Origin: Candidatus Cloacimonadales bacterium
Lineage (GTDB): Bacteria; Cloacimonadota; Cloacimonadia; Cloacimonadales; JAFGVF01
Assembly: GCA_963678315.1 (NCBI GenBank)
Contig: OY782781.1
Location: 2,237,482 to 2,301,481 of the forward strand
Direction of reading: 5' to 3'
Length of the DNA: 64,000 nucleotides
Shown: in pieces, positions 9,892 through 64,000 of the stretch
Layout: the number at the start of each line of letters is the position of its first letter
Numbering within the stretch: position 1 is the first letter of the stretch
Position numbers and translations under genes: made by a program
Notes under the pieces: model-generated
Database searches by the model: none
Seen by the model: only the letters and a program-made list of their open reading frames with translations
What the model was told of the DNA's origin: nothing

Positions 9892-10286
9892 ATCTGTCTT
9901 TGTTTTGCATAGATGTAATCAACAATATCTGATACTTTTAACACTGGTCCATTACTTATATCTTCAAGGATATCATTAATTCTTTCTTTGGACAAATGAG
10001 AGTATTTCTTTTCTAACTCAAAAAAAAGCTCTTTATTCTCTGATTTATATCTCACAATATCAGTCCTTAGATTTTTTAAGAAGATGATATCGGAGCTAAA
10101 AAAGGATGTGTTACTAGCTAAGGTAAACTCTTTTTTTATATCAATCGCTAACTCCATTAAGTCGATTGATTCAGCTTCTAGCTCTCTTATTATGTAAGTA
10201 TCACTGCTAATTACATTGATATCAATATCTAGTAAATCTGAGATAATTTCTTTGAGTTTTATATAAATTTCTTTTTTATTTAACAT
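9888..10286 (-). CDS. Acyl carrier protein-like protein with C-terminal extension
   Basis: The N-terminal ~80 aa resemble ACP, with an ELEAESIDLMELAIDI motif (phosphopantetheine Ser in DSL/ESI context). Total length is 132 aa, longer than canonical ACP. Confidence 0.6.
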   Translation of the reverse strand: MLNKKEIYIKLKEIISDLLDIDINVISSDTYIIRELEAESIDLMELAIDIKKEFTLASNTSFFSSDIIFLKNLRTDIVRYKSENKELFFELEKKYSHLSKERINDILEDISNGPVLKVSDIVDYIYAKQRQI

Positions 10287-11250
10287 TATTAAATCCTTTA
10301 TCTAAATTAATTATATTCCCATGCATTAACCAAGTTTCTTCCTTAAGAAATAGAGCCATAAATGATGTAATCTCTTCAATTCCTAAGACCTTGTCTTTAG
10401 ATAGACTGACTTGCATATCATTATATCGACCACTCTCTATATATGTTGGTCTAATAATAATTGACTTAACACCCTTTTTTCTGAGTTCATTGCCTAGTGC
10501 TAAGTATATGTTTTCTATAGCAGTTTTACTTGCTAGGTAGAATGATTGTCCTTGATTAAATCTATTTACTGCATTTGATGAGACGTAGATTAGCCTACCA
10601 AAGCGTTTTATTCTCATAATATTACTTACTTCTCTCAAAAGTATAATCTTATTTGTAACATTGATTCTTAGGTATTCTTCAATATCAGCATTTAAAGATG
10701 TAGTAATAAGACTTTCATATCTTGAATGCAAAAAATCAAAAACATAAGCAAATTCTTTATCTTTGAAATAATCAATATTACTCAAAGAATTAAGATCTAC
10801 CTTTATCCATTCTACATTCGTGTTTACTTTTAAAAGAGGCTTATTTTTATTATAGCTAGCAACAACTTTATACTTAGTTAAATCAATTTTATTTATAAGC
10901 TTTTGACCAAGTTCACAAGATCCACCTAGTATTAGTACTCTTGTTTTTAAGTATATGGACTTATAAAAATATATTTTTCCTTTTGCATAAACTTGTGTAT
11001 TGTCATAGAGAGTACAAGTAGCAAGTTCTTCTTTAATCTCTATTTTTGCGCTATATATCTTTGGTTTAGCAAATTTATAAAACTTAAACCTAGAGATATT
11101 TTTTATATGATTAGGCTCAATTTCATTCTTTATAAAATTTATAAATGAAGCTATAATCAATGATCCTGGAACTAAAGGATTACTTGGAAAATGCTCCTGG
11201 TATATTAAATCTTCTTCATTGAAGTGAAATGTACTCTTTAATTGAAACAC
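10276..11250 (-). CDS. Fusion protein: FabZ/FabA-like hotdog dehydratase (N-terminal) + SDR-family ketoreductase (C-terminal)
   Basis: The N-terminus has EHFPSNPLVPGSLI (the FabZ HFPxxPVxPG catalytic His motif). The C-terminus has a Rossmann ILGGSCELGQ and an SDR catalytic YLASK (YxxxK). Confidence 0.7.
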   Translation of the reverse strand: MFQLKSTFHFNEEDLIYQEHFPSNPLVPGSLIIASFINFIKNEIEPNHIKNISRFKFYKFAKPKIYSAKIEIKEELATCTLYDNTQVYAKGKIYFYKSIYLKTRVLILGGSCELGQKLINKIDLTKYKVVASYNKNKPLLKVNTNVEWIKVDLNSLSNIDYFKDKEFAYVFDFLHSRYESLITTSLNADIEEYLRINVTNKIILLREVSNIMRIKRFGRLIYVSSNAVNRFNQGQSFYLASKTAIENIYLALGNELRKKGVKSIIIRPTYIESGRYNDMQVSLSKDKVLGIEEITSFMALFLKEETWLMHGNIINLDKGFNNVK

Positions 11251-12608
11251 TATCCGATAACCTCAAGAATAGAATCATAAGTAATGTTTAGCAATCTTTC
11301 AAAGTCATCTTGACTAATTGATAGAGGAGGCATTATAACAATGATATCTCCCAATGGACGTAAAATTAGCCCCTTTTCACGTGCTTTAAGTATAATTTTA
11401 TGGCCTACCTGGTCTTTTTGAGGAAAATTCTCTTTTGTTGTTTTTTCTTTTACTAGCTCAATAGCTATCATAATTCCTTTATTTCTTATATCTCCAACAT
11501 GTTTTAACAAAGCAAATTTATACTTAAAGTCATCGAATAATTGTATATTTTTTGCCACATTATCTAAAGTCTTTTCCTCTTCGAATAAATCTATGTTAGC
11601 TATTGCTACTGCTGAAGCAAGAGCATTACCTGTAAAAGTATGTCCATGATAAAAAGTTCTGCATTCTTCAGGCTCACCTAGAAAAGCTTCATAAATTTCT
11701 TCAGTTGTAACTGTAGCTGCTAATGGAATATATCCACCAGTAATACCCTTTGCCATACAAATTATATCAGGCTTTACATCTTCTTGCTGGCAAGCGAACA
11801 TTGTACCTGTTTTACCAAATCCTACTGCTACCTCATCACATATCATTAATATTTCATACTTTGTACATAGCCTTCTTACTTCTTTTAAATAACCCTGAGG
11901 ATGAACAATAAGTCCACAAGCTCCTTGAACTAAAGGCTCAATTACAAGAGCTGCAATTTCATTGTGATTGTTTGCCATGATTTCTTCTAATTGCCTAAGA
12001 CAATAATCTTTACATTCTTCTTCAGTCATACCACCATTTAACCTATAGCTATAAGGAGATTCAGCTTTGAATGAATTAAACAGTAGAGATGAATAAACTT
12101 TATGGAATAAATCAATTCCCCCGACACTTACAGATCCAATTGTGTCACCATGGTAGGCAGATTTATATGATATGAATTTTCTCTTGTTTTTAGAACCGTT
12201 TATTGATTGTTGTTGATACTGGTAAGCCATTTTGAGAGCAATTTCAACAGAAGTTGACCCATTATCTGAGTAGAATACTCTAGTTAGATTATCTGGGGTG
12301 ATTTCAATTATCTTATCAGATAATTCAATTGCTACTGAATTTGTCTGGCCTAGAAGAGTTGAATGAGATACTTTATGAACTTGATTAATAATAGCTTCAT
12401 TTAGTTTAGGATGATTATGGCCATGGACATTAGTCCATATAGAAGAAATACCATCTATATATTTTTTACCTTCAATATCATACAAATATATCCCTTCTCC
12501 CCTTTCTATAATCAAGTGTTCTTCATTATTTAATTGTTTCATTTGTGCAAAAGGGTACCACATGTTTTGCTTTGAAGACTTCATTAAATTTTCTTTTCTA
12601 GATTCCAT
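11250..12608 (-). CDS. bioA: Adenosylmethionine-8-amino-7-oxononanoate aminotransferase
   Basis: 452 aa class III aminotransferase (WYPF.., HGHNHP, DEVAVGFGKTG, PLP Lys in MAKGITGG), sitting between bioB and the fab-like genes. Confidence 0.85.
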   Translation of the reverse strand: MESRKENLMKSSKQNMWYPFAQMKQLNNEEHLIIERGEGIYLYDIEGKKYIDGISSIWTNVHGHNHPKLNEAIINQVHKVSHSTLLGQTNSVAIELSDKIIEITPDNLTRVFYSDNGSTSVEIALKMAYQYQQQSINGSKNKRKFISYKSAYHGDTIGSVSVGGIDLFHKVYSSLLFNSFKAESPYSYRLNGGMTEEECKDYCLRQLEEIMANNHNEIAALVIEPLVQGACGLIVHPQGYLKEVRRLCTKYEILMICDEVAVGFGKTGTMFACQQEDVKPDIICMAKGITGGYIPLAATVTTEEIYEAFLGEPEECRTFYHGHTFTGNALASAVAIANIDLFEEEKTLDNVAKNIQLFDDFKYKFALLKHVGDIRNKGIMIAIELVKEKTTKENFPQKDQVGHKIILKAREKGLILRPLGDIIVIMPPLSISQDDFERLLNITYDSILEVIG

Positions 12609-13636: not shown

Positions 13637-13833
13637 TACACCAAAAAATGTACTAGGACTTGAAAATAGCACTATATTATTCCTGTGAGGGCGTAGCTTT
13701 AGCAAAGACTCATGGTAAGAATAACTTCCATAATAACAACAAGAATATATTATTACTCGAGCGTCGATTCTGTATGCTATTTTGCTCAACTATATAGCAC
13801 TATTTTCGTCACAACTAATGCTTCATTTGGGTT
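13637..13833 (+). mobile_element. MITE-like repeat, copy 1 (~197 bp), with imperfect terminal inverted repeats ACACCAAAAAATG...CATTTGGGTT
   Basis: About 85% identical over its length to the reverse complement of 58235..58399. It lies between the bio promoter and the terminator of the upstream oxidoreductase operon. Confidence 0.7.
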
Positions 13834-13856
13834 AAATACATTAAGTATAACAATAA

Positions 13857-21625: not shown

Positions 21626-22582
21626 CTATTTTATAATTGTAATTTTCTTAACTTGACTCCTTTCCCCATACTTAACATTTAGAAAGTATATGCCAGACGG
21701 ATAATCTAAATTCTGAATCTGAAAATATCCTTTCTTTGATTTAAGATTGTTTTCAGAATAAACTAATCTACCTCTAAGGTCATAGAGAGACAGACTTATA
21801 TTCTTATTACTTTTTTCCATAAATTCAATATTGAAACTGTTTATACAAGGTTGCGGATATATCTGTTTGATTAGCTGATTCTGCATAGGTTCAACCTCTT
21901 GAGAATTTGACACTGTTTTATGGTAGGTTACGATTAAGTGCGGATCATATGAATTTGATGAGGTTGGGTTATTTGAATATGAAACATAATCTGCTTCATA
22001 TAGTCCTATATCATGACCTGGAGGGAATCTCAGTCTAAACTGTGAGTATCCACGTGAATGTTCTATATCATTAAGATAGCTCTCAGTAATTGGAAAGGAG
22101 ACCCAGCCAACATGACCACTATCTTGCAGAACACCTACATTGGAAGTAAGTGGTTCAAGATCAAAAACAGAAGGAGCTAAAGTCTCATACTCTATGTGGT
22201 CTATATTTACTGAGTAGGGTGTAGTGTAGTAGTGTGGCCAAACAAGATCTATCCCATTATCCCAATAGCGCCAACAGTAAAGTTGAAGTATTACATTTGC
22301 CACGACGTAATCATTGGGAACAGGAATAGTCTCGAATGAAATAAATGATCTTAATTCAAAAATACCGGTTCCAACAAACTGAGCATAACCGTAGCCAATG
22401 TCTAAAGTTGTTAGATTGGGAAAATTGTAATAATCATGATAATCCATATTATAGTATATAGTCCCAGTCATAGGATTAGGTTCAGAGTATATTGTGTCAA
22501 CAAGAACTGAGTCATCTCTATCAGCATATAATTGTAGAATTAAGCTATATAGAATTAAAAAGATTAATAGATATCTCTTCAT
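21626..22582 (-). CDS. Secreted hypothetical protein with T9SS C-terminal domain (tandem paralog 1)
   Basis: Signal peptide and C-terminal YPQPCINSFNIEF...GIYFLNVKYG...KKITIIK CTD. About 82% aa identity to the adjacent ORF. Confidence 0.7.
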   Translation of the reverse strand: MKRYLLIFLILYSLILQLYADRDDSVLVDTIYSEPNPMTGTIYYNMDYHDYYNFPNLTTLDIGYGYAQFVGTGIFELRSFISFETIPVPNDYVVANVILQLYCWRYWDNGIDLVWPHYYTTPYSVNIDHIEYETLAPSVFDLEPLTSNVGVLQDSGHVGWVSFPITESYLNDIEHSRGYSQFRLRFPPGHDIGLYEADYVSYSNNPTSSNSYDPHLIVTYHKTVSNSQEVEPMQNQLIKQIYPQPCINSFNIEFMEKSNKNISLSLYDLRGRLVYSENNLKSKKGYFQIQNLDYPSGIYFLNVKYGERSQVKKITIIK

Positions 22583-22605: not shown

Positions 22606-23562
22606 TTATTTTATAATTGTGATTTTCTTAACTTGACTTCTTTTCCCATCCTTAACCTTGATAAAATATATTCCTGATGGATAATCTAAGTTTTGCATTC
22701 GGAAAAGCCCCTTATTTGATTTTAGATTATTTTCAGAATAAACTAATCTACCTCTAAGGTCATAAAGAGACAGACTTATGTTCTTATTACTTTTTTCCAT
22801 AAATTCAATATTGAAACTGTTTATACAAGGTTGCGGATAGATCTGTTTGATTATTTGCTCCTGCATAGGTGTAACCTCTTCAGAATTTGACACTGATTTA
22901 TGGTAGGTTACGATTAGGTGTGGATCATGCGAACTAGATGAAGTTGGGTTATTTGAATAATTTACAACATCTGCTTCATATAGAGATATATCATGACCTG
23001 GTGGAAATCTCAGCCTAAACTGAGAATAATCATGCGATTGTTCAATATCGTTAAGATAGCTCTCAGTAATCGGGAAGGAAATCCAACCAACATAAGCACT
23101 ATCCTGCAAGACCCCCACACTGGAAGTAAGTGACTCAACATCGAAAACTGAAGGTTCTAAGGCTCCAAACTGTATGTGATCAATATTTACTGAATAAGGT
23201 GTAGAATAATAGTGTGGCCATATAAAGTCGGTGCCATTATCCCAATAGTACTGACATTTAAGACGTAACATTACACTTGATATGACGTAATCATTGGGAA
23301 CAGGAATAGTCTCGAATGAAATAAATGATCTTAATTCAAAAATACCGGTTCCAACAAACTGAGCGTAACCATAACCAATTTCTAAGGATGTTTGATTGGG
23401 AAAGTTATAATAATCATGATAATCCATACTATAGTATATAGTCCCAGTCATAGGATTAGGCTCAGCGTATATTGTATCAACAAGAACTGATTCATATCTA
23501 TCAGCATATAACTGTAGAATTATGCTAAGTAGAATTAATAAGATTAAGAGATGTCTCTTCAT
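22606..23562 (-). CDS. Secreted hypothetical protein with T9SS C-terminal domain (tandem paralog 2)
   Basis: 318 aa, same length as and collinear with paralog 1. The upstream RBS/leader sequence is duplicated too. Confidence 0.7.
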   Translation of the reverse strand: MKRHLLILLILLSIILQLYADRYESVLVDTIYAEPNPMTGTIYYSMDYHDYYNFPNQTSLEIGYGYAQFVGTGIFELRSFISFETIPVPNDYVISSVMLRLKCQYYWDNGTDFIWPHYYSTPYSVNIDHIQFGALEPSVFDVESLTSSVGVLQDSAYVGWISFPITESYLNDIEQSHDYSQFRLRFPPGHDISLYEADVVNYSNNPTSSSSHDPHLIVTYHKSVSNSEEVTPMQEQIIKQIYPQPCINSFNIEFMEKSNKNISLSLYDLRGRLVYSENNLKSNKGLFRMQNLDYPSGIYFIKVKDGKRSQVKKITIIK

Positions 23563-47534: not shown

Positions 47535-48641
47535 TTAATTTTTCCATTTATACTTGCCTAAAGTACCATTAATTGCAAAGATAACGAATATCAAAATATA
47601 AACTATCATAAATGCAAAATAGCACCACAAGTATCTAAGTCTTTTAATTTTGTATGAGAAGTAGCCCAAATAGAGCAATTCAATAAAAACTTTACTAATA
47701 ATAATATACATAAAGATACTTATTGGCATTGAAGCAATCAATGCTGAATATATCATATATCCCAGACTAATAAAATACATGAACATAAAGATGCTAAATA
47801 GCTGAAGTACTTTTGGATGGTACTTAAACTTAGAAGCCCTTCTAGTTTCTAAATTAGCATGAGCGCTAGTAGATTCTTTTTCTATAGTAGAGATTTGTGA
47901 ATCTGATGAAGTAAGATACTTAACATTACGTAAATTAACCCACATATTGAATAACTGCAAATCATCATCACCTGAAGGTATATGTTTAAATCTTCCGAAG
48001 CCTCCACTCTTTAAGTACACAGATTTCCTGTAAGCCATATTAGAAGCTGAAGCTGTAATTGGTGTACGATTACCTAATCCACTGGCAGCTAGGGCTCGAT
48101 AAACTATTGCTTCAAAAGTTTTAAGCTTATTAAGGAAGGTTTTATGCCTAAATATGACATGAGTGTAACCTAAAATATAATCTGTTTTATCATCAAACTC
48201 ATTGGCAAAAGTCTCTATCCATTTACTATTAACAACACAGTCAGAATCTGTAAACATAAGAATATCATTTGCAGCAGACTCAATTCCTTTTGCTACGGCT
48301 TGCTTTTTACCGGTAGTTCCATCTTTTTTGTTAATACTAATTAATTTGATATTAATATTCGAACTAATTATGTATTTTTGAACTTTATTATAGGTATTAT
48401 CATGACTTCTATCATCAACAATTAATACTTCGAATAAGTCCTTTGGATAAGTTTGTTCTTCTAGTGATTCAAGAAGATTTATAATGTTGGCTTCTTCATT
48501 TCTAGCAGCTACGATTACAGAAACTTTGTTCTTCTTTTTGCTTGTATTATTCTTTCTGTAACATATTCTAACTACACCAATAATTAGATATATAATCAGT
48601 AAAACATATATGACATTTATTGCTATTAAGGTATTTATCAT
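47535..48641 (-). CDS. Family 2 glycosyltransferase, membrane-anchored
   Basis: N-terminal TM helix, GT2 core (VSVIVAARNEE...DSDC) and multiple C-terminal TM helices. Confidence 0.7.
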   Translation of the reverse strand: MINTLIAINVIYVLLIIYLIIGVVRICYRKNNTSKKKNKVSVIVAARNEEANIINLLESLEEQTYPKDLFEVLIVDDRSHDNTYNKVQKYIISSNINIKLISINKKDGTTGKKQAVAKGIESAANDILMFTDSDCVVNSKWIETFANEFDDKTDYILGYTHVIFRHKTFLNKLKTFEAIVYRALAASGLGNRTPITASASNMAYRKSVYLKSGGFGRFKHIPSGDDDLQLFNMWVNLRNVKYLTSSDSQISTIEKESTSAHANLETRRASKFKYHPKVLQLFSIFMFMYFISLGYMIYSALIASMPISIFMYIIISKVFIELLYLGYFSYKIKRLRYLWCYFAFMIVYILIFVIFAINGTLGKYKWKN

Positions 48642-50326
48642 TATCTATTTTGAATATTAACTATCTTTGAATTTGTATCTTTGATAAGCTTTGCTAAATC
48701 AGGACTTTTTTTTTCAATGTTATCAATAGTTACTTCTTCAATTACTTTCTTATCTTTTTTTTTTAGTAATACTTCTAATGTAACTTTATTATCAAAGAAT
48801 TTCGATAATTCTTCTTCAAGTATTATCATATCAGTCTTAAACTTATTCTCAATTAGTGTAGAATCGGTAGAAATTATAATCCTGTTATTAATAACATCTT
48901 CAACTGATACTCTCAATAAGTAAGTTGCAAGAAGACTATAATTCTTTTTTACAAATCTATTAAGTTTATCCCAATTATTATTCACTACATCAAGGGATAT
49001 TTTTTGATTACTATTTACAGCTTCTGGTTTCGTACGAATATTCTCTGTCGGTGTATTATCTAATTTTTCTACTTTCTTTTTTGTATCCTCAGTTCGTTTT
49101 TCTTCAAGCTTTTTTGCTTCACTTGCTTGTGAGTTAACATTTGATTCAGTTATAGTAACAGTTTTCTTTACTTGAGAATTATTAGCATTAGTAGATTGGA
49201 TATTTATTGTTGTAGGAGGAGCAATTACATCATCAATATTTACTAAGTCATGAATTTTAGAAAGCTTTATAAGGACTATCTCAATCATTATCTCTGGATG
49301 ATCGGCATATTTCATATCCATCTTAGTTTTCATCAAAATAGATATTATATAAAGAATATCTTCATCATCAAATTTTCTAGTTACATTAGTAAGAGATTCC
49401 ATCTGACTATCAGAAACTTCTCCAGAATTAACACCATAGTTAGCTAAAAGACAGAATCTTAAATAATCAAGGAAGCCATTTACAACTTCAATTATATCTT
49501 TTCCAGTTGCAATAACACTGTGTAAATTCTCAATAACTGCTTTTGTATTACCTGAGTTAATGTTCATCATTATGTTTTCATAGACATCGAAGGACAATAT
49601 CCCGAACACTTCTCTTACTGTAACCTCATCAATGATTTCATTACCAGTAGAGATTACTTGATCCATAAGAGAAAGTGCATCACGCATTCCACCATCAGCC
49701 TTTTTAGCTATTTGGAATAAGGCCTCTTCTTCATATTTTAGATTCTCACTATTGCATATATTCTTAAGGTTTTTAACTATTGATTCAACTGGAATACGTT
49801 TAAAATCATATCTTTGACAGCGTGATATAATAGTAGGAATAACCTTATGAGGCTCTGTAGTAGCAAATATAAAAATCACATTTTCAGGTGGCTCTTCTAA
49901 TGTCTTTAGTAGGGCATTGAATGCATTCTTTGATAGCATATGAACTTCATCAATTATATATATCTTATACTTAGAGCTATTGGTTGTATATAAAAGTTCT
50001 TTTTGAAGCTCTCTAATGTCATCAACACCAGTGTTAGAAGCACCATCTATTTCTATTACATCTGATGATATACCAGAAGTAATCTCTATACAATTTGAAC
50101 ACTTATTACATGGGTGTCCTTTGCTACCTTCTGTGCAGTTAAGAGTTTTAGCTAAAATACGAGCCAAGGATGTTTTGCCAACACCTCTAGGACCTGTAAA
50201 AAGAAACGCATGTGCAATTCTATCATTTTCAATAGCATTAACCAATATTTTAGTTATATGCTCTTGTGCATAAACATCTTCAAAAGTCTGGGGTCTATAT
50301 TTTCTAGCTAAAACAACGTATGACAT
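48641..50326 (-). CDS. dnaX: DNA polymerase III subunit gamma/tau
   Basis: ARKYRPQTF, Walker A GPRGVGKTS and the zinc module CxxC..C..C. 561 aa. Confidence 0.9.
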   Translation of the reverse strand: MSYVVLARKYRPQTFEDVYAQEHITKILVNAIENDRIAHAFLFTGPRGVGKTSLARILAKTLNCTEGSKGHPCNKCSNCIEITSGISSDVIEIDGASNTGVDDIRELQKELLYTTNSSKYKIYIIDEVHMLSKNAFNALLKTLEEPPENVIFIFATTEPHKVIPTIISRCQRYDFKRIPVESIVKNLKNICNSENLKYEEEALFQIAKKADGGMRDALSLMDQVISTGNEIIDEVTVREVFGILSFDVYENIMMNINSGNTKAVIENLHSVIATGKDIIEVVNGFLDYLRFCLLANYGVNSGEVSDSQMESLTNVTRKFDDEDILYIISILMKTKMDMKYADHPEIMIEIVLIKLSKIHDLVNIDDVIAPPTTINIQSTNANNSQVKKTVTITESNVNSQASEAKKLEEKRTEDTKKKVEKLDNTPTENIRTKPEAVNSNQKISLDVVNNNWDKLNRFVKKNYSLLATYLLRVSVEDVINNRIIISTDSTLIENKFKTDMIILEEELSKFFDNKVTLEVLLKKKDKKVIEEVTIDNIEKKSPDLAKLIKDTNSKIVNIQNR

Positions 50327-50327: not shown

Positions 50328-52253
50328 TTATCCTCTTAAATCTATTTCCTTTCCGGTAAAAACTCTAGTATCTTCCATTCTTTTAGTAATAGCAATTTTG
50401 TCAAAGATTTCTAAATAATATAAAGTGATTTTTCTATTAACTCCAAGAGCATCTCTAACTTCACTTACTTTAAAATTCTTAGGACATTTGTCTTTAATAG
50501 CTTCAATTATACTTAAAATTATACTTGCTGAAATGAAGACATTATTTTGAGGTATAATTAGCTTTTGTTCAATCAGGTGATTGATTATTGAATTATAATC
50601 TTGCCCTTTTAACGAATACTTTTTTATAGACAGATCTTTCAAGTCCTCTTCGGGATAGTCTACACCAATCTGATTTATATCTTCAAGAATGCTTTTTTCT
50701 GTGTTAATCAAGTAATTTGCATCTTCTGGATTATGAGAACTTAGCAAATATGTACTATCAAATGCCTTTACAGAATTTTCTTCAGTCATGCCTTTTAGAA
50801 TGCTTATTAAAACTGACTTTGTAATAGTAGTGTGTTTACTCGAGATATATTTAAATATATCATTTATTGATAATCCCTTATTACTTAGTTTATTTTGTAA
50901 ATGATGTCTTCGAAGGACTTTATTTACTTCCTCTTCAATAATTTCTTTCCTCTCTCGTAAGACTAATAAACTTTCATTATCTTCTTTGATAATTGTAATC
51001 ATATCCGGAATTTCTTTTATAGCAGAATCCAACACTTCTAAAGTAATATTTAGATATCTACAGATAGTTGTAGCTTTCAATAAATCAAGCGACTTTTCCA
51101 GTTCATTGAGAATAACCCATTTTACTTCGTTATTAGCTAGTTGATGTAACTTATCAATTAGTTTTTTAGGTCTTTTCTTATGTTTTAAAGGGTAAGCATC
51201 AATAATTCTACCACCGCCAATAGTCTTTGTATTAGAACTGTCTCTTATAATGTACTTGTCGTTATAGTAAAATACTCCAGCTTTATCTAACGTAATTTGG
51301 ACTATAGCCGTTTCATTTTCAGTTAGTTCATTTTTATCAATCAAGTGCATTTTGGCTTTCGATTTGTAAGTACCAGATAATAGGATTACTGTTGACCATA
51401 ACTTCAATGTTTCTTTAGAGTAATTTACTAAATGACAATCAATCCTATCGCTGTTATCTCTATCATGAGATGTAATCAACATACCTCGTCTAAATTCAGA
51501 AACTTTCAAACCTGTTACGTTAAGAGAAGCTCTGTCTCCTGGAAATATACTATCTACAGAATGTTTAAATCTTTCGATTCCTCTTATTCTTAAATTTTTT
51601 CTATCAGGGAGTAATAAGACTTCATCAGTTTTAACCAATTTCCCACTTAATACTGAGCCATTAACAACAGTTCCATGACCTGTAACTGAAAAGATTCTAT
51701 CTATATACATTCTAAAAACTAGACCTAAGTCTTTTTCATTAACCATAGAAATTTGATTAGCAATCTCTTTTCTTATATCATTCAGTCCATTCCCTGTTTT
51801 ACTGGATACTTTTATAATATTACAATTTTCAAGAAAGCTACTTGAAACAAACTCTTTAACCTCTTCAATTGCTAATTCTGTCAATTCCTCGTCTACTAAG
51901 TCAGTTTTTGTTAATGCAACGAAGCCAGATTTAATGTCTAATAGCTCCATGATTTTAAGATGTTCTTGTGTTTGTGGCATAATTCCACTATCTGCTGAGA
52001 TAACTAACATAACAAAATCAATGCTTGAAGCACCAGCTATCATAGTATTTATGAAGTCCTTATGACCTGGTACATCAATTATTCCCACTTCCTTATCTTC
52101 ATCAATCTTAATATGACTAAAACCTAGATGAATTGTTATACCCCTATTCTTTTCTTCTTTATGAGTGTCACAATCAAAGCCGGTTAGAAGTTTTATTAAA
52201 GACGTTTTTCCATGGTCAACATGGCCTGCAGTTCCCATTGTTAAGTGTTTCAT
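50328..52253 (-). CDS. selB: Selenocysteine-specific translation elongation factor SelB
   Basis: EF-Tu-like GTPase GTAGHVDHGKTSL with long C-terminal winged-helix extensions. 641 aa. Immediately downstream of selA and tRNA-Sec. Confidence 0.85.
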   Translation of the reverse strand: MKHLTMGTAGHVDHGKTSLIKLLTGFDCDTHKEEKNRGITIHLGFSHIKIDEDKEVGIIDVPGHKDFINTMIAGASSIDFVMLVISADSGIMPQTQEHLKIMELLDIKSGFVALTKTDLVDEELTELAIEEVKEFVSSSFLENCNIIKVSSKTGNGLNDIRKEIANQISMVNEKDLGLVFRMYIDRIFSVTGHGTVVNGSVLSGKLVKTDEVLLLPDRKNLRIRGIERFKHSVDSIFPGDRASLNVTGLKVSEFRRGMLITSHDRDNSDRIDCHLVNYSKETLKLWSTVILLSGTYKSKAKMHLIDKNELTENETAIVQITLDKAGVFYYNDKYIIRDSSNTKTIGGGRIIDAYPLKHKKRPKKLIDKLHQLANNEVKWVILNELEKSLDLLKATTICRYLNITLEVLDSAIKEIPDMITIIKEDNESLLVLRERKEIIEEEVNKVLRRHHLQNKLSNKGLSINDIFKYISSKHTTITKSVLISILKGMTEENSVKAFDSTYLLSSHNPEDANYLINTEKSILEDINQIGVDYPEEDLKDLSIKKYSLKGQDYNSIINHLIEQKLIIPQNNVFISASIILSIIEAIKDKCPKNFKVSEVRDALGVNRKITLYYLEIFDKIAITKRMEDTRVFTGKEIDLRG

Positions 52254-53612
52254 TTATTTTGAATACTCTCTATTGATTTGACTTGTTATGTATTCAATAT
52301 CATCATCATTAATTGCAATCACATCTAACACTAACTTACTTCCTTTCAGAAAACCGAGAATAGGTTTTTCTAAAGCTAGCAGATTATAGAAAGCTCTTTT
52401 ACTTACTTCTTCAGTTGCATCAATTTCAATTGCATATGATTCTAATTTAATTTTTGGTAAAGAACCACCACCAACTTTAGCTGAGTGCTCAATAATAGAA
52501 GTCTTAACAAATATACGCTTACCCAAAGAATATGCTCTATTATAAAGTATTTCTTTAGACTGTCTTATTTGTCTAAAAAATGGTAGGTCTATCTCACTAA
52601 TAGGCTTGTTATGCTCTTTTATAGTTTCGTATAAAATAGTTTCTGTCACTTTACCAACTCTCAACACACGATACAAAGGGTTTTTCTTTAATCTATCAAT
52701 GTACTCTCTTTTTCCTACAATAATGCCAGCTTGTGGTCCGCCTAATAACTTGTCCCCACTAAAACTTACTAAATCTACTCCATATTTAAGAATTTCGGAT
52801 ACGCTCTCTTCCCATTCAAAAGTAGAAGAAGAGTCTTTAGTTAAAATTGCTGATCCAACATCATAATATGAAATCAGATTATTTTCTTGTGCTAAACTTG
52901 CGATTTTATCAATTAATACTTCTTCAGTAAAACCTTCTAAGAAGAAGTTTGATCTATGAACTTTCATCAGCATAGTTGTATTTTCATTAATGTTATTGAT
53001 GTAATCATTCAGTTTAGTTTTATTTGTAGTACCAATTTCTTTAAGTTTTGCCCCACTCATATTCATTATGTCTGGAACCCTAAATGAACCACCAATTTCT
53101 ACTAATTCCCCGCGTGATACAATGACCTCAGATTTTTTAGCTAATTCATTTAATATAAGAAATACAGCACTTGCATTGTTATTAACAATGAGACTTGCCT
53201 CAGCCCCAGTTGTCTTACAAATAATGTTTTTAAGATAAGCACCTCTCTCTCCTCTCTTCCCTTTCTCTAAATCAAATTCTATATTTAAATAATTAGCTAG
53301 TTTTTCAGATGTTGATTCCAAAATCTTTTTACTAATTTTAGCCCTTCCTAAATTAGTATGAATTAAAACCCCGGTGCAATTAACAACATTCTTTAATTCT
53401 GTGGGTAAATATTGTTTAAGTTGATTATCTAAGAGAATTAATATCTCTTCACTTGTATAGCCTGAGCCTGATAATATATCTTTCTTAATTGATGAAATGA
53501 AAGCCTTAGTTAGTTCCTTTGTTCTTTGTTCACCTAAAACTTTAAAATATTCTTGTAATCTATTGTCTTCATATATCTTATTCATTGATGGAACATTAAT
53601 CATTTCATTCAT
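52254..53612 (-). CDS. selA: L-seryl-tRNA(Sec) selenium transferase SelA
   Basis: PLP-Lys motif SFSGDKLLGGPQAGIIVGK, as in E. coli SelA. 452 aa. Confidence 0.9.
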   Translation of the reverse strand: MNEMINVPSMNKIYEDNRLQEYFKVLGEQRTKELTKAFISSIKKDILSGSGYTSEEILILLDNQLKQYLPTELKNVVNCTGVLIHTNLGRAKISKKILESTSEKLANYLNIEFDLEKGKRGERGAYLKNIICKTTGAEASLIVNNNASAVFLILNELAKKSEVIVSRGELVEIGGSFRVPDIMNMSGAKLKEIGTTNKTKLNDYINNINENTTMLMKVHRSNFFLEGFTEEVLIDKIASLAQENNLISYYDVGSAILTKDSSSTFEWEESVSEILKYGVDLVSFSGDKLLGGPQAGIIVGKREYIDRLKKNPLYRVLRVGKVTETILYETIKEHNKPISEIDLPFFRQIRQSKEILYNRAYSLGKRIFVKTSIIEHSAKVGGGSLPKIKLESYAIEIDATEEVSKRAFYNLLALEKPILGFLKGSKLVLDVIAINDDDIEYITSQINREYSK

Positions 53613-53630
53613 AAAAACCTCTTATTAGAG

Positions 53631-53660
53631 AAGACGAGTCGGAAATTATTCCGACTCGTT
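53631..53660 (-). other. Stable hairpin between selC and selA (GACGAGTCGG-aaattatt-CCGACTCGTT)
   Basis: A 10-bp perfect stem directly 3' of the tRNA on the transcribed strand, followed by the selA RBS (AAGAGG). It is not followed by a U-run, so it is a processing or partial-termination signal rather than a canonical terminator. Confidence 0.5.
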
Positions 53661-53669
53661 AATTTATTT

Positions 53670-53765
53670 GGCTGAGAGGGCAGGAATCGAACCTGCCAAA
53701 AACGGTTTTATCCGCTTCCTATCGGTTTTGAAGACCGACTGAACCACCAGATTCATCCTCCCGGC
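53670..53765 (-). tRNA. selC: tRNA-Sec (selC), anticodon UCA
   Basis: Folded by eye on the minus strand. It has a GGTTCGATTCC T-loop with a 5-bp T-stem. The 6-bp anticodon stem (GTCGGT/ACCGAT) carries loop CTTCAAA, giving anticodon TCA. The D-stem is 6 bp (TGAATC/GGTTCA) with 4-nt loop TGGT. The variable arm is long (~23 nt) and the acceptor is extended (8-9 bp) with one C.A mismatch. Exact ends are uncertain to within ~3 nt. Confidence 0.8.
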
Positions 53766-53777: not shown

Positions 53778-55616
53778 TTAATAGATATCTTTTTCTGCTT
53801 TTGCTGCAACATTCATCATTTCTGGGTGCATACCAGGTAATATATCTACAGCATGTACTGGACATACGTCAGCACAGTTTCCACATTTAACACATTCAGG
53901 TTGTGAGATAGTGTATTTTTCTTCTCTGCTACCTGAAATACAGTTAACAGGACATTTTCTAGCACATAATGAACAACCGATACATTTGTCTTTATCAATG
54001 TCGAAGTGAATAAGTGATGTACAAACTTTAGCAGGACAGCTCTTATCTTTAATATGAGCTTCATATTCACTTCTAAAGTATCTAATAGTACTTAAAACAG
54101 GATTAGGAGCAGTTTGACCTAGTCCACATAATGAAGATTTTTTAATATCTTTACCTAATCTAATAAGTTCCTCGATATCACCTTCTTTACCTTTGCCTTT
54201 AGTAATATTATCTAATATACCGTACATTTGTTTTAGACCTAAGCGACATGGGAAACATTTACCACAAGATTCTTCAACTGAGAAGTCTAAGAAGAATTTA
54301 GCAACATTAACCATACAGTTACTGTCATCCATAACAATAACACCACCAGAACCCATCATTGCACCTTTTTCAGTCAATGATTCATAAGTAATAGGTGTAT
54401 CAAGATCTTTTTCAGTTAAGCAACCACCTGATGGTCCACCAAGCTGAACAGCTTTGAATTTCTTGCCATTAGGAATTCCACCACCAACTTCAAAGATAAG
54501 CTCTCTAAGTGTGATGCCCATAGGCACTTCAACAAGACCTGTGTTTTTCACGTCACCTGTTAAAGCGAAAACTTTAGTACCTTTTGATTTTCCTTCACCC
54601 ATTGAAGCAAACCATTCAGCACCTTTATTAAAGATTGTAGGAATATTAGCTAAAGTTTCAACATTGTTAACTGTAGTTGGTTTATCCCATAATCCTTTTA
54701 CAGCTGGGAATGGTGGTTTTGGAGTTGGTTGTCCTCTCATACCTTCGATAGAGTGGATAAGAGCTGTTTCTTCACCACATACGAAAGCACCAGCACCAGT
54801 TCTAACTTCAGCATCAAACTCGAAACCACTAGCAAAAATATCTTTACCTAAAAGACCTATTTCTCTCATGTTTTCTAGAGCTTTATTGATTCTAGCAATA
54901 GCTAAAGGATATTCAGCTCTGATATAGAAATAACCTTTTGTCGCACCAATAGCATAACCTTCTACCATCATACCTTCAATGATTCTATAAGGATCACCTT
55001 CAAGTAATGATCTATCCATGAATGCACCTGGATCACCTTCGTCAGCATTACAGATTACATATTTTTGGTCAGCTTCATTGTTATAACAGAACTGCCATTT
55101 TAAACCTGTTGGGAATCCACCACCACCACGACCTCTAAGTCCAGATGCTTTGATAAGATCGATAGTTTCTTGTTGTGACATTTCTGACAAGACTTTACCT
55201 ATAGCTTCAAATCCGCCTGTAGCAATGTATTCATCCATAGATTCAGGATCAATATGTCCACAATTTTCTAAAGCTACTTTAACTTGTTTTTGGTAGAAAG
55301 GAATATCTTTCTTAGTAGCAAGAACTTTTTCAGCTTCAGAAATCATTAATCTTTTAACAGGTCTACCTTTTAAGAAGTGTTCAGTAACAATTTCATCTAC
55401 ATCATCAACTGTTACTTTTTGATAGAATACACCTTCAGGGTAAACCATCATAACAGGACCGAAATCACATGGTCCCATACAACCTGTTTCAATAATATTT
55501 ACTTCACTTCTTAAATCATTTTCTTCTAATAATTCAACGAATCTATTTTTAATTTTTAATGCACCTGCTGATACACAACCAGAGCCACAGCAAATAAGTA
55601 AATCTAATCTCTTCAT
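53778..55616 (-). CDS. NuoF-like NAD(P)H-binding flavoprotein subunit (HydB/HndC/FdhB-type) with N-terminal thioredoxin-like [2Fe-2S] and C-terminal 2x[4Fe-4S] domains
   Basis: 612 aa with N-terminal CCGSGC...C, an FMN/NADH site (GRGGGGFPTG...) and C-terminal CIGCSLCARKCP / CVKCGNCADVCP ferredoxin motifs. Confidence 0.85.
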   Translation of the reverse strand: MKRLDLLICCGSGCVSAGALKIKNRFVELLEENDLRSEVNIIETGCMGPCDFGPVMMVYPEGVFYQKVTVDDVDEIVTEHFLKGRPVKRLMISEAEKVLATKKDIPFYQKQVKVALENCGHIDPESMDEYIATGGFEAIGKVLSEMSQQETIDLIKASGLRGRGGGGFPTGLKWQFCYNNEADQKYVICNADEGDPGAFMDRSLLEGDPYRIIEGMMVEGYAIGATKGYFYIRAEYPLAIARINKALENMREIGLLGKDIFASGFEFDAEVRTGAGAFVCGEETALIHSIEGMRGQPTPKPPFPAVKGLWDKPTTVNNVETLANIPTIFNKGAEWFASMGEGKSKGTKVFALTGDVKNTGLVEVPMGITLRELIFEVGGGIPNGKKFKAVQLGGPSGGCLTEKDLDTPITYESLTEKGAMMGSGGVIVMDDSNCMVNVAKFFLDFSVEESCGKCFPCRLGLKQMYGILDNITKGKGKEGDIEELIRLGKDIKKSSLCGLGQTAPNPVLSTIRYFRSEYEAHIKDKSCPAKVCTSLIHFDIDKDKCIGCSLCARKCPVNCISGSREEKYTISQPECVKCGNCADVCPVHAVDILPGMHPEMMNVAAKAEKDIY

Positions 55617-55631
55617 TTTAAAAAACTCCTC

Positions 55632-55991
55632 TTATTTACTGATGATAAAATCAGCTACAGGTTGTCCATTCACTATATGTTCAGCAACAACTTTTTTAGC
55701 TTTTTCTACATCCATGTTACCATAAGTAACAGCTTCTTTACCTTCTACAATGATATCAACCACTGGTTCCATAGAAGAAAGACCTTTTTCTCCAGTTTGA
55801 CTAACTACAACATCTTTGATTTGTCTTGTAGCTATTTCGTCTAGAAAAGTTTTCATAACTTCTCTAGCTCCCATTGCGATACCTGATGTACCCATTCCAA
55901 CAACTATCTTTATTCTACTGCCTGAATTTCTCAACTTCATATCTTGTTGAGCTTTCTCACGTATTTTTCTGAGTTCAGCCAATGTTTTCAT
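55632..55991 (-). CDS. Small thioredoxin-like-fold protein (HndB-like) lacking Cys ligands
   Basis: 119 aa in the position typical of HndB / (2Fe-2S)-ferredoxin-fold proteins in NuoEF-type modules, but containing no cysteine. Confidence 0.45.
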   Translation of the reverse strand: MKTLAELRKIREKAQQDMKLRNSGSRIKIVVGMGTSGIAMGAREVMKTFLDEIATRQIKDVVVSQTGEKGLSSMEPVVDIIVEGKEAVTYGNMDVEKAKKVVAEHIVNGQPVADFIISK

Positions 55992-56560
55992 TAGATATCT
56001 CCCATTTTTGTATTTTTAATTCCATTTTTTATATTTTCATCTATAAATTGAATAACATCCGGATATGTAAGAGGTATGTCTCCCAACTCTTCTTTAATAA
56101 TTCTCGTATCAAATTCAAAATAAAATTCTTGTTCCAACGTATTATGAATAATCTTTAAGAGAAAATCTGTCTCTGGATGTCCAATTATCGAACCAATTAC
56201 TGTGTCTGCCAAACTTCCAACTGGCATTCTATCAATATGGTCTTTTTTAAATATTGCTTCTAATGTTGTGCCTTTATTTACTTCGCTGGTCATTAAGAAT
56301 TTACCATCACAAAGTTCAGCATTTTGTTTGAATAAAGGAATTCCTAATCCAACTTTTTTCTTTCTTTCTGACTTTGAAGTATAAAAAGGATTTAAAGCAT
56401 TCTGAAGTGTTTCATTATCCATTCCTATCCCATCATCGATTATTTTAAAGCTTAGATAATTGTCCTTTTCATCAGCTTTCATAATAATTTCAACAAGCGA
56501 CGAATCCGCTCTTGCTGAATTCTCAATAATGTCCAATAAATGTAGGGATAAGTCTTGCAT
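55991..56560 (-). CDS. Histidine-kinase-like ATPase (HATPase_c only) associated with the NuoEF module
   Basis: 189 aa with N-box/G-box-like motifs (HLLDIIENS, IIDDGIGMD, GLGIPL) and no HisKA or sensor domain. Confidence 0.6.
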   Translation of the reverse strand: MQDLSLHLLDIIENSARADSSLVEIIMKADEKDNYLSFKIIDDGIGMDNETLQNALNPFYTSKSERKKKVGLGIPLFKQNAELCDGKFLMTSEVNKGTTLEAIFKKDHIDRMPVGSLADTVIGSIIGHPETDFLLKIIHNTLEQEFYFEFDTRIIKEELGDIPLTYPDVIQFIDENIKNGIKNTKMGDI

Positions 56561-56563
56561 AAT

Positions 56564-57046
56564 TTATCTGTACTGGTTTAAAATTTCAATAACCTTATCT
56601 TTTGAATCGATTCTACCGTAAGTTTCTTCACCGATAACAAAAACAGGTGCTAATGAACATGCACCAACACATCTAACAGCACTAAGAGTAAACATACCAT
56701 CTTTGGTTGTTTCACCCATTTCAATACCTAATTCATCACTAAACATTTGAATCAATCTAGGAGCGCCTTTAACATAACAAGCTGTACCTGTACATACGTT
56801 GATAACGTACTTACCTCTTGGTTTCATTGTAAAGAAGTTGTAGAATGTCACTACACCGTAGATTTTATTAAGTGGAACACCTAACTCAATAGAAATAAAT
56901 TTTTGAACTTCCATTGGTAAGTAACCAAAAATAGCTTGAGCTTCTCTCAATACTTCAATTAAAGGATTTCTAAGCTGTTTTTTAACATCAATAATTGCTT
57001 TTAAATCCCTATACATTTGGTTGTCGTAATTAGCTATTTGCGACAT
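56564..57046 (-). CDS. NuoE-like thioredoxin-fold [2Fe-2S] ferredoxin subunit (HydC/HndA-type)
   Basis: 160 aa with the Cys pattern CTGTAC...CVGACSLAP characteristic of NuoE/24-kDa subunits. Confidence 0.8.
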   Translation of the reverse strand: MSQIANYDNQMYRDLKAIIDVKKQLRNPLIEVLREAQAIFGYLPMEVQKFISIELGVPLNKIYGVVTFYNFFTMKPRGKYVINVCTGTACYVKGAPRLIQMFSDELGIEMGETTKDGMFTLSAVRCVGACSLAPVFVIGEETYGRIDSKDKVIEILNQYR

Positions 57047-57406: not shown

Positions 57407-58603
57407 CTAATGAATTGCATATTGCTGCACTTCTTCGAACAATAATCTATCTCTTTTTATTTCGTTAGCTAACTCCTCTTTAGTAGGCAAGTAGTGTTTA
57501 TATTTTGAAGCAAAAAGCTGATTATTATCATTTAATATAGAATATTTTACGATAGTAGAATCCGTCTCACTACATAAAAGCATGCCAATTGTAGGATTAT
57601 CATCCTCACCTCTTTCTAAATCATCAAACATACGTACATACATATCCATCTGCCCAACATCTTGATGAGTCAATTTATCTGTCTTTAGATCAATTAGAAC
57701 AAAACATTTGAGAATATAGTTATAGAAAACTAAATCAATATAGAAATCTGAAGTTTCGGTCCTAATAAGCTTTTGTCTAGCAACAAAAGAAAAACCTTTT
57801 CCTAGCTCAAGAAGGAAACTTTGCAGATTAGTTATCAGAGAATCTTCTAATTTAGATTCTGTATAGCTTTTATTTCTTGGGATATCTAAGAATTCTAAGA
57901 CATAAGGATTTTTAAAGAAATCTTTTTGATTTTGTTTCATTTTGGCTGTCTTTTTTTCCATTTCTGCAATAACTGGAGCAGTTTCTTGAGAACTTAACAA
58001 TCGTTCATAGTAGAGAGTATTGTAATTTCTTTCTAATGTTCTATAAGACCAACGCTGTGACACAGCCTCATCTGTATAGTACTGTCTAGCATCACTATTT
58101 GTAATTCTGATTAGTACTCTATAATGACTCCAACTCAATTCGGGTCGCACTGCGGACCGAATTGGGTAAACATTATAAAACTGTCTCATTCTTCTAAGTG
58201 ATCTTTCATTAAAGCCTTTGCCAAATTCTTTTTTAACCCATATGATGCATTAGGTTTGACGAAAATAGTGCAGATTATTTCAGCAAAATAGCTTACAGAA
58301 TCGAAGCTCGAATAATATATATTCTAGTTAAGATTATGGAAGTTATTCTTGCCAAATAATATAGTGCTATTTTTCAAGTCCTAGTGCATTATTTGGGTTT
58401 AACTCCAAAGATAGTTCTTTAAGTAATTTCCTACCATAAGTTGCTCTATCCGCTCCTTTCTGTTCTTCTTCTACAATTCTTTTACCTATGAGCCAATAAG
58501 CTTGAACCATAGCGGAATTTACAACATTACGTGCTTTACTTCTAGCTTTATTTAAAATCTCTTTAATATCTTTTATAAGTTCATTTTCATGTATTTTTAC
58601 CAT
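57407..58603 (-). pseudogene. DUF1016/YhcG-family PDDEXK nuclease gene interrupted by a MITE-like insertion (N-fragment 58367..58603, C-fragment 57407..58250)
   Basis: N-fragment ...AMVQAYWLIGKRIVEEEQKGADRATYGRKLLKELSLEL and C-fragment KKEFGKGFNERSLRRMRQFYNVYP... are contiguous in YhcG-family proteins. Between them lies a 165-bp element introducing a stop. Confidence 0.75.
58235..58399 (-). mobile_element. MITE-like repeat, copy 2 (165 bp), TIRs AACCCATATGATGCA / TGCATTATTTGGGTT, inserted in the YhcG-like gene
   Basis: About 85% identical to the reverse complement of 13637..13833 apart from a ~32-bp internal deletion. Removing exactly 58235..58399 restores a continuous in-frame YhcG-like ORF (…LSLEL|KKEFGKGF…). 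Confidence 0.75.
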
Positions 58604-62220: not shown

Positions 62221-62350
62221 TTATACACTCCAAAAATTTATTGACTAATCTCTGTCTATATTGTATAATGACTAATATTAATATAAATGATTTCTTGTAA
62301 ATTAATATTTTACAAGATTTCATTTCAGACCTTTATATAAAGGAGCTAAA

Positions 62351-64000
62351 ATGTTTAATCTATGTGACAATGCTAAAATAAATACAGTCTTAAATGATAT
62401 AGTTAAAAGAGTCAATAATCTTGCTGAAGAACAATTAGACCATATAAACAGACTTACAGAAATTGGTTTATCACTTTCTCAAGACAATAAAATTGAGGAT
62501 GTATTTGATTTAATCCTTTCTGAGGCAATTGCATTTACTAATGCTGATGGTGCAACTATCTATTCTGTTACTGAAGACAAAAAGAGTTTAGAATTTGCTT
62601 TAATGGTTACCCGTTCTAAAGGAATTAAGGCTGGCGGTAAATACGGTCAAGTTAAACTCAAACCTGTTCCGATATACAGAGAAGATGGACTACCAAACAT
62701 GTCGCATCAAGCCTCTTGTGTTTTTCATACAAAAGAATTTTTAGAGTTTGATGATTATTACCATCAAGATAGATTTGATCCATCTGGAACCATAGCCTGG
62801 GACAAAGCTAATGATTATAGATGTAAATCAATGTTGGCTATCCCATTAATGAATCATGAAAAGGATGTTCTTGGAGTAATCCAGCTTATTAACGCAATAG
62901 ATAAGCATACTGGTGAGATAATAAGCTTCCCTAAAGAATCCATAACCATGGTTATGTCCTTAGCTTCCCAAGCTGCTATAGCATTAACAAACAAATACTT
63001 GATATACTCTCTAGAGAAGCTATTCAAGGAATTTATCAAAGCTATTGCGCTCGCACTTGATAGAAAATCCAAGCATACTGGTGGACATATTGAAAGAGTT
63101 GCCAAGATATGTATGATGATTGCTAATAAAGTCAATAGTGATAAAACTGGATATTACAAGAATGTGGAGTTCTCAAAAATAGAACTTGATGAACTATCAA
63201 TTGCTGCCTGGTTACATGATGTTGGTAAAATAGCTACTCCTGATCATATAATGAATAAAGCAACAAAACTTAATCTACCATTCGATAAGATAGACCTTAT
63301 AGATTCTCGAAAAGACACAATATTAGCTTTACATAATAATGATAAGTACATACAAACTAATTTTAAAAACAGGACTAATTTCAATTATCTCGAACTTGAA
63401 CCTTCAACTGAACAAGAATATCAACAAGCAATAATTAAGAAAATTGAAGATGACTTCTTATTCTTGCAAGAAGTAAATATAGGTGGCGAATACTTTAGCC
63501 ACGAAAAAGAACTTAGTGTCAAAAGAATTGCTAAGTTTGTTTATTTCATAAATGATACAAAAAAGAATTTTATTGAAGCAGATGAACTTAAAAATCTTCT
63601 CATAGCTAGAGGTACCCATACTAATGAAGAAACCAAGATTATGCATGATCATGTTAAAATATCTTATGAAATATTAAATCAGATGTCTTATCCTAAAAGA
63701 TATTCTAATGTACCAATCTATGCTTCTTCACACCATGAGAAAATGAATGGAGATGGCTATCCATGGGGATTCTCAGCTGACGAGCTTCCTCTTCAATCAA
63801 GGATATTAGCAGTATCGGATATATTCGAAGCTTTAACTGCTCCTGATAGACCATACAAATCTGGGAAAAAGCTCTCTGAATCAATGAAGATACTTGCATA
63901 TATGGTTAAAGATGGTCATATTGATAAGAATCTTTTCAAATTAATCCTTGACTCAAACTTTATTGAAGAATATTCGGAGAAACATATTCCTGCTATCCAA
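62351..64000 (+). CDS. GAF domain-HD-GYP phosphodiesterase (partial; runs off the window end)
   Basis: Own translation shows an uninterrupted frame from ATG 62351 to the window end. The N-terminal region is GAF-like. The HD-GYP signatures are AAWLHDVGKIATPD and HHEKMNGDGYPWG. Confidence 0.75.
   Translation, partial: MFNLCDNAKINTVLNDIVKRVNNLAEEQLDHINRLTEIGLSLSQDNKIEDVFDLILSEAIAFTNADGATIYSVTEDKKSLEFALMVTRSKGIKAGGKYGQVKLKPVPIYREDGLPNMSHQASCVFHTKEFLEFDDYYHQDRFDPSGTIAWDKANDYRCKSMLAIPLMNHEKDVLGVIQLINAIDKHTGEIISFPKESITMVMSLASQAAIALTNKYLIYSLEKLFKEFIKAIALALDRKSKHTGGHIERVAKICMMIANKVNSDKTGYYKNVEFSKIELDELSIAAWLHDVGKIATPDHIMNKATKLNLPFDKIDLIDSRKDTILALHNNDKYIQTNFKNRTNFNYLELEPSTEQEYQQAIIKKIEDDFLFLQEVNIGGEYFSHEKELSVKRIAKFVYFINDTKKNFIEADELKNLLIARGTHTNEETKIMHDHVKISYEILNQMSYPKRYSNVPIYASSHHEKMNGDGYPWGFSADELPLQSRILAVSDIFEALTAPDRPYKSGKKLSESMKILAYMVKDGHIDKNLFKLILDSNFIEEYSEKHIPAIQ

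Follow-up and report, generated by a model that had tools for sequence, protein, structure and literature searches.

Bacterial selenocysteine tRNA (tRNA-Sec), the product of selC, occurs in forms that differ in the branch made up of the acceptor and T stems. In Escherichia coli and Aquifex aeolicus the branch is 8/5, with 8 base pairs (bp) in the acceptor stem and 5 bp in the T stem, or 13 bp in all. A 12-bp branch with a bulge is found in Epsilonproteobacteria, Spirochaetes, Clostridiales and other groups (PMC5330540), and a 7/5 "Cloacimonetes-type" tRNA-Sec is attributed to Mukai 2016 in the account that the Secmarker paper gives of it (PMC5330540; see also PMC5389517). The same paper reported G73 in 94.6% of the Secmarker tRNA-Sec predictions and an encoded CCA in 93% of bacterial tRNA-Sec genes (PMC5330540). 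Here we describe a selC-selA-selB locus at positions 50328-53765, on the minus strand, of a 64,000-nucleotide (nt) stretch of contig OY782781.1, referred to below as the window. The locus is a genuine, intact and ordinary selC-selA-selB module from a probable member of the Cloacimonadota. What is new is that this tRNA and those of its relatives are further examples of a 12-bp Cloacimonetes type that had been described before, and the understanding of the selenocysteine (Sec) system is not changed by them.

A preliminary description of this DNA, made from the sequence alone, had placed a tRNA with a UCA anticodon directly 5' of selA and selB on the same strand, and the ARAGORN, Rfam and TIGR matches agree with that placement. 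The sole tRNA found in the window by ARAGORN was tRNA-SeC(tca) at 53670-53764 (-), and the Rfam tRNA-Sec family RF01852 matched 53671-53765 (-) with 61.4 bits, above its gathering score of 47. SelA scored 487.5 bits to TIGR00474 (cutoff, 267.9) and 1e-122 to Pfam SelA. It contains the pyridoxal phosphate (PLP)-lysine motif SFSGDKLLGGPQAG noticed previously, with SFSGDK present, and its closest solved structures are those of Aquifex SelA, 3W1H/3W1K (E = 7e-101). SelB scored 325.3 bits to TIGR00475 (cutoff, 242.25) and has the expected EF-Tu-like GTPase, SelB beta-barrel and C-terminal winged-helix domains (PF00009, PF25461 and PF09107), with Aquifex and E. coli SelB, 4ZU9 and 5LZB, as the closest solved structures. 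The features of the locus are as follows.

53669..53763 (-), selC, tRNA-Sec(UCA), 95 nt with its encoded CCA; detected by ARAGORN and Rfam, ends taken from conservation in homologous loci
53729..53731 (-), anticodon UCA, within the loop CUUCAAA at 53727-53733
53672 (-), G73, followed by CCA at 53671-53669, the 3' end of selC
53633..53660 (-), conserved hairpin; 8 nt lie between the CCA end and the hairpin, and 20 nt between the hairpin and the selA ATG
53618..53623 (-), Shine-Dalgarno-like AAGAGG, 5 nt ahead of the selA ATG, read from the sequence
52254..53612 (-), selA, L-seryl-tRNA(Sec) selenium transferase, 452 amino acids (aa); TIGR00474, Pfam SelA PF03841
50328..52253 (-), selB, Sec-specific elongation factor, 641 aa; TIGR00475; its ATG abuts the selA stop codon

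Homologous loci were retrieved from a sister genome (L048; SelA at least 90% identical), from the next closest lineage (L010 and L011; SelA 59%), from a group of five loci with SelA of about 50% identity (L004-L006, L008 and L009; three of the five on complete contigs of about 3 Mb) and from a lineage at 42% (L012 and L013). tRNA-Sec lay directly 5' of selA in all of the retrieved clade relatives, the open reading frames (ORFs) of selA and selB were intact in every lineage sampled, and the tRNA was almost invariant across SelA divergence down to 42%. Comparison with the sister genome gave ratios of nonsynonymous to synonymous change (pN/pS) of 0.27 for selA, 0.04 for selB, 0.26 for dnaX and 0.03 for a NuoF-like gene upstream; judged by these ratios, selA and selB are under purifying selection. 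A scan of species-representative genomes returned relatives only at 38-40% SelA identity, the closest named one being a Cloacimonadota metagenome-assembled genome (MAG) at 40%. The window is also rich in proteins with type IX secretion system (T9SS) Por_Secre_tail and FlgD_ig domains, which fits the Fibrobacteres-Chlorobi-Bacteroidetes (FCB) group. In a related FCB-type lineage (L014; SelA 47%), positions 9106-12165 hold a cluster of selA, a TusA/YedF-like gene and selD (the Cys form, GGCSAK) with no selC nearby, so the arrangement of the Sec genes is not the same in neighbouring lineages; SelD itself is about 60% identical from one phylum to another.

Acceptor branch of selC

In all eight homologous loci, which represent four lineages and SelA identities of 42-100%, the conserved block starts at the C before GGGAGG (53763 in the window) and stops at GCCA (53669). 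The 5' flank of the block varies, reading GC in the window, AT in L010, AA in L004-L009 and GGT in L012, and the 3' flank is A/T-variable between lineages, while G73-CCA is invariant in eight of eight clade loci. Between these boundaries selC folds in the 7/5 register. Its 7-bp acceptor stem (C1.A72, G2-C71, G3.U70, G4-C69, A5-U68, G6-C67 and G7-C66; strands 53763-53757 and 53679-53673, minus strand) is joined by a single linker base, A8, to a 6-bp D stem with a 4-nt loop, and these are followed by a 6-bp anticodon stem, a variable arm with an 8-bp stem and a 6-nt loop, a 5-bp T stem, and G73 with the encoded CCA. The 5' side reads CGGGAGG-A-UGAAUC, that is, 7+1+6 nt with no bulged acceptor base, and past the T loop the sequence runs CCUGC/CCUCUCA/G/CCA, with 7 nt between the T stem and G73.

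The distance from the T loop to GCCA was 12 nt in every clade member versus 13 nt in control genes, which were ordinary 13-bp tRNA-Sec genes from metagenome and viral contigs. Likewise, the 5' side up to the D loop comprised 7+1+6 nt in the clade versus 8+2+6 nt in the controls. The canonical 8/5 form has 13 nt from the T loop to G73 and a 2-nt linker, whereas selC has 12 nt and a 1-nt linker; its branch of 7+5 bp, with one linker base gone and no bulge, has the structural features of the Cloacimonetes type. A count of pairing at each position in seven distinct sequences showed the D, anticodon, variable and T stems to be 97.6-100% paired, in agreement with the 6-bp D stem and 4-nt loop, 6-bp anticodon stem and long variable arm first drawn for this tRNA. 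Six pairs were altered on both sides, two each in the D, anticodon and variable stems, a number reached in none of 500 shuffles. The outer pair required by a 9-bp acceptor stem was unpaired in five of the seven sequences, and that required by an 8-bp stem in four of the seven.

The preliminary description had assumed an extended acceptor helix of either 8/5 or 9/4 geometry that contained one C.A mismatch. The mismatch is real, but it is the terminal pair, 1:72, and not an internal one. The extension can be drawn on this sequence alone and finds no support among the relatives, and the conserved boundaries together with the 12-nt spacing from T loop to G73 give 7/5 instead. Judged from this conservation, selC is a 12-bp 7/5 Cloacimonetes-type tRNA-Sec, neither 8/5 nor 9/4. 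The 8/5 drawing by ARAGORN and the 9-bp alignment by Rfam are artefacts of 13-bp templates and, in this genome, make use of a chance pairing of two leader bases with G73/C74. This is of practical consequence, as standard tRNA finders, which assume a 13-bp branch, mis-draw selC with the wrong 5' end and the wrong discriminator. Two of the acceptor pairs vary within the clade. Pair 1:72 is C.A in the window and U.G in L012, and pair 3:70 is G.U in the window and A3-U70 in L012, so G3.U70 is not essential to the type. A tRNA-His-like pair between -1 and 73, restoring 13 bp, was considered and rejected: pairing in three of the four lineages is expected by chance in AT-rich flanks, and such a pair would take up the free G73 that seryl-tRNA synthetase (SerRS) needs.

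Compared with the tRNA-Sec of E. coli and A. aeolicus, the tRNA of the window has in common the UCA anticodon, the 6-bp/4-nt D arm, the 6-bp anticodon stem, the long variable arm and G73-CCA, and differs in an acceptor stem one pair shorter and a linker one base shorter. The Aquifex and E. coli proteins of known structure are homologues of the SelA and SelB of the window. In E. coli selC lies apart from selAB, to which it is adjacent in the window. The bulged 12-bp type (PMC5330540) likewise has 7 nt from the T stem to G73. Its 5' side, however, is 10 nt long, with either a bulged base or one more base in the linker, and its first pair, G1-C72, is Watson-Crick, in contrast to the 8 nt, absence of a bulge and C.A of the window; two Brachyspira loci (L002 and L003) showed the bulged form, with a 10-nt 5' side and 12 nt before G73. 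Allo-tRNAs and the selC* tRNA-Cys (Mukai 2017, PMC5389517) resemble it in the Sec-like D arm, the long variable arm, the branch of 12 bp and, in some cases, the UCA anticodon, but their branch is 8/4 or 9/3, their identity elements are different (U73 in selC* tRNA-Cys), and they are not located 5' of a canonical selA-selB pair. With the Cloacimonetes type, as Mukai 2016 is summarized in PMC5330540, the window tRNA has in common the 12-bp 7+5 branch, the linker lacking one base, G73, the UCA anticodon, the Sec-type D arm and the linkage to selA and selB, and no structural difference from the type as summarized there was detected.

Viral contigs of IMG/VR also carried tRNA-Sec(UCA)-like genes, all of the standard 13-bp kind (L051, 8313-8411; L059, 592-685; L061, 545-638). 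The L051 gene lies in a phage array of 16 tRNAs, and those of L059 and L061 lie in arrays beside Ala and Cys tRNAs. Five further SeC-like genes (L052, L053, L055, L060 and L063) were at viral contig ends, as expected of prophage attachment at selC. The 12-bp clade pattern was not found in the viral contigs, in which only 13-bp tRNA-Sec genes were matched.

Gene organization, expression and recoding

The genes on either side of the locus are on the same strand.

53778..57046 (-), NuoE-like, HATPase, 2Fe-2S ferredoxin-like and NuoF-like genes, upstream of selC
48641..50326 (-), dnaX, beginning 1 nt past the selB stop and sharing an overlap of 1 nt with the gene that follows
beyond dnaX, the packed block goes on with GT2, udk, the PHP-domain gene, folA and others

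The gene order NuoE-like, HATPase, ferredoxin-like, NuoF-like, selC, selA, selB, dnaX, GT2, udk, PHP, an unnamed gene and folA is common to the window and six other loci from five distinct relatives (L004-L006, L008, L009 and L048). The selC-selA-selB genes had been described as an operon; that they form a separate one does not hold, because selC begins 14 nt past the NuoF-like stop codon, only 20 nt separate the hairpin from selA, and selB, dnaX and the next genes abut or overlap; the three genes are embedded in a tightly packed syntenic block that runs from nuoE/F-like through dnaX onwards. The module of NuoE-like, HATPase, 2Fe-2S ferredoxin-like and NuoF-like genes resembles those found together with bifurcating hydrogenases or formate dehydrogenases. 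No adjacent catalytic subunit, HydA or FdhA, was found beside it in any clade genome, and selC-selA-selB sits where HydA or FdhA usually follows. A scan for sigma-70 promoters gave 37 sites versus 37.1 expected, and the Bacteroidetes-type TAnnTTTG box occurred about once per 0.8 kb, with no such box in the 700 nt that precede selC or selA.

The strong hairpin noted earlier between the tRNA and selA was borne out. In the window it has a stem of 11-12 bp and a 4-nt loop, and the 11-bp stem folds at -21.6 kcal/mol (z = -5.0), as well as which none of 200 shuffles folded. The stem, GAGUCGGA/UCCGACUC, is conserved to a degree that is unusual between genes. Its consensus comprises nine pairs, with one compensatory pair (U-A in five sequences, C-G in three) and one wobble change. 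The loops vary (UAAU, GUAU, GAAA, GCAA and GUAA) and are GNRA, with a T-run behind the stem, in the relatives with SelA of about 50% identity. A T-rich tail follows the stem in L004-L010, and in the window it is eroded to CTTCTCT, below the threshold of the terminator scan, which flagged the hairpin in the opposite orientation only. The hairpin is missing in lineage L012, and no credible Rfam family was matched when the hairpin and the leader of selA were searched permissively.

From this arrangement a transcription model can be proposed for selC-selA-selB-dnaX. selC would probably be transcribed from an upstream nuoE-nuoF-like transcript starting ahead of the NuoE-like gene and be cut out by RNase P. 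The hairpin would probably act as a leaky terminator or as a stabilizer of the 3' end, and read-through would give selA-selB-dnaX a lower expression than that of the tRNA. Outside coding sequence neither selC nor selA has room for a separate promoter, and this model is the simplest. SerRS would then charge the tRNA(UCA) with serine through G73 and the long variable arm; SelA, recognizing the 6-bp/4-nt D arm, would turn Ser-tRNA into Sec-tRNA; and SelB would bring Sec-tRNA to UGA followed by a selenocysteine insertion sequence (SECIS) hairpin in selenoprotein genes elsewhere in the genome, which has about 3 Mb and 31% GC.

Since selC, selA and selB are genuine, intact and conserved, recoding of UGA to Sec very probably operates in this organism, as the preliminary description had proposed. 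Its further statement that the window contains no obvious selenoprotein gene was also upheld: a sweep for TGA through TGA-open frames, all ORF stops, gaps and the window ends found no coding-strand ORF in the window that was split or extended by TGA, and Pfam annotation of the window ORFs of at least 90 aa showed no typical selenoprotein family. The set had been called complete, which is correct for selC, selA and selB and overstated as regards selD, as Pfam annotation of the same ORFs revealed no AIRS-domain protein in the window. The stop codons of the 52 window ORFs were TAA in 29, TAG in 18 and TGA in 5, so that TGA is still a normal stop. Almost certainly some UGA codons are read as Sec in this organism, and TGA-interrupted genes elsewhere in the genome therefore deserve re-examination.

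Taken as a whole, the explanation of the locus as a working Sec-insertion module with a 7/5 tRNA, embedded in a larger block and followed by a leaky hairpin, is in our judgement highly probable. Several points weigh against it. The ends of the mature tRNA are deduced from conservation, and the pair count covers seven aligned sequences from four lineages, with four of the seven from one lineage. In this genome alone, the selC leader can lengthen the helix to 9 bp. In E. coli the eighth acceptor pair is reportedly needed for SelB, as Baron and Bock are said to have found in 1991, and how SelB accepts a 12-bp tRNA while EF-Tu rejects it is unexplained. The T-run of the hairpin is weak in the window, neither scan assigned a promoter, and selD and selenoprotein genes were not seen within the 64-kb window. 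Finally, the phylum assignment is drawn from the 40%-identical Cloacimonadota MAG, the T9SS-type proteins and the tRNA type only.

Alternative explanations of the tRNA and the hairpin

The 12-bp type poses a real and already recognized question, namely, how SelB and EF-Tu tell a tRNA of canonical length from the elongator tRNAs. Of the three E. coli antideterminants against EF-Tu (C7-G66, G49.U65 and C50-G64), the window tRNA keeps only C50-G64 and has G7-C66 and G49-C65 at the other two positions. A weak first pair keeps EF-Tu off the bacterial initiator tRNA, and by this likeness the weak 1:72 pair of selC is a plausible candidate for an element that excludes EF-Tu. The pairs G2-C71, G3.U70 and G4-C69 of selC are three of the four acceptor identity elements of bacterial alanine tRNA, the fourth being A73 (PMC9976931), and the acceptor stem thus unites three alanine-type pairs with an initiator-like unpaired C1.A72. 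These features can be combined into a single proposal, which we regard as doubtful. A non-Watson-Crick 1:72 pair (C.A, or U.G in L012) would supplant both the 13-bp rule and the antideterminants against EF-Tu; the stack of G2-C71, G3.U70 and G4-C69 may additionally make selC a weak substrate of alanyl-tRNA synthetase (AlaRS); and the placement behind NuoE/F could tie the supply of tRNA-Sec to expression of a redox complex, the catalytic partner of which would be a selenoprotein encoded elsewhere.

A regulatory role for the hairpin was weighed against the leaky terminator proposed above. As Thanbichler and Bock are said to have described in 2002, the E. coli selAB leader binds SelB through a SECIS-like element and is autoregulated. 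The hairpin here might similarly mimic a SECIS, bind SelB and autoregulate translation of selA-selB, and both the strong conservation of its GAGUCGGA/UCCGACUC stem and its position 20-60 nt ahead of the selA start would suit such a role. This is unlikely, however, because the loop, which is the part read by SelB in known SECIS elements, varies among the relatives. The T-run after the stem is terminator-like in most of them, and neither the missing hairpin of L012 nor the lack of an Rfam match favours a SelB-binding element.

A standard 13-bp tRNA-Sec of 8/5 geometry would start at C53764, with C1-G72, C2.A71, discriminator C73 and a CCA that is not encoded. This is exactly the fold of ARAGORN, it would obey the 13-bp rule, and the extra pair can be formed in the window (C-G), in L010 (U.G) and in L012 (U.G). 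Throughout the L004-L009 lineage, however, the extra pair is A.G, leaving four of the seven sequences unpaired. The fold also demands C73, although G73 is near-universal in tRNA-Sec and reported to be critical for serylation (PMC5330540), does not account for the invariant GCCA and retains a linker of 1 nt. The published description of the type, as given in PMC5330540, is 7/5. We therefore consider the 8/5 fold quite unlikely and retain the 7/5 form.

A suppressor-like tRNA-Ser of normal 7/5 geometry would have counted against the preliminary description. The geometry is indeed 7/5, but the identity of the tRNA is still Sec, as judged from its D arm, anticodon stem, Rfam score and place 5' of selA-selB, and 7/5 forms of tRNA-Sec are on record (PMC5330540). 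It could be argued that selC is an EF-Tu-dependent opal suppressor resembling tRNA-Ser, or an allo-tRNA-like molecule with a 12-bp branch, since elongator tRNAs have a branch of this length and only one of the three E. coli antideterminants against EF-Tu is retained. We consider this very improbable because of the same conservation that marks selA, selB and the tRNA, the Sec-type D arm (6 bp, 4-nt loop), the location directly 5' of selA-selB, which is found in four of four lineages, and the fact that 5 of the 52 ORFs still end in TGA. Moreover, the anticodon stem has 6 bp, the Rfam tRNA-Sec score is above the gathering threshold, selA and selB, which are under purifying selection, require a tRNA-Sec substrate, and allo-tRNAs are 8/4 or 9/3, not 7/5 (PMC5389517).

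That the Sec machinery is a decaying relic, in which selD or the selenoproteins were lost and recoding ended, would agree with the lack of a selD or selenoprotein gene within 64 kb but is equally remote, because the three genes are intact in every sampled lineage, pN/pS is low (0.04-0.27) and the tRNA is nearly invariant down to 42% SelA identity, and because selD and the genes for selenoproteins lie apart from selABC in most bacteria.

Other features of the window

Away from the Sec genes, an element of about 157 nt at 58241-58397 (-) interrupts a gene for a DUF1016/YhcG PDDEXK nuclease (57407 to about 58603), which is intact (343 aa) in the sister genome L048. The flanking alignments of the element overlap by 10 nt in L048, suggesting a target-site duplication. 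A second copy, 85-93% identical, is present at 13641-13836 between bioB-like and POR-gamma genes. When folded, the element forms a hairpin that is long and imperfect (-33 kcal/mol), and for this reason it looks like a miniature inverted-repeat transposable element (MITE).

Two partial ORFs leave the window at its ends. A topoisomerase-like ORF (2-1279, -) leaves at the left end, and a 565-aa GAF/HD-domain ORF (62306-64000, +) leaves at the other; a listed 93-aa ORF at 62854-63135 (-) lies antisense within the latter and is probably spurious. Two tandem 318-aa ORFs at 21626-22582 and 22606-23562 (-) each have a C-terminal T9SS sorting domain and no other Pfam match, and they probably arose when the gene for a secreted protein was recently duplicated in tandem.

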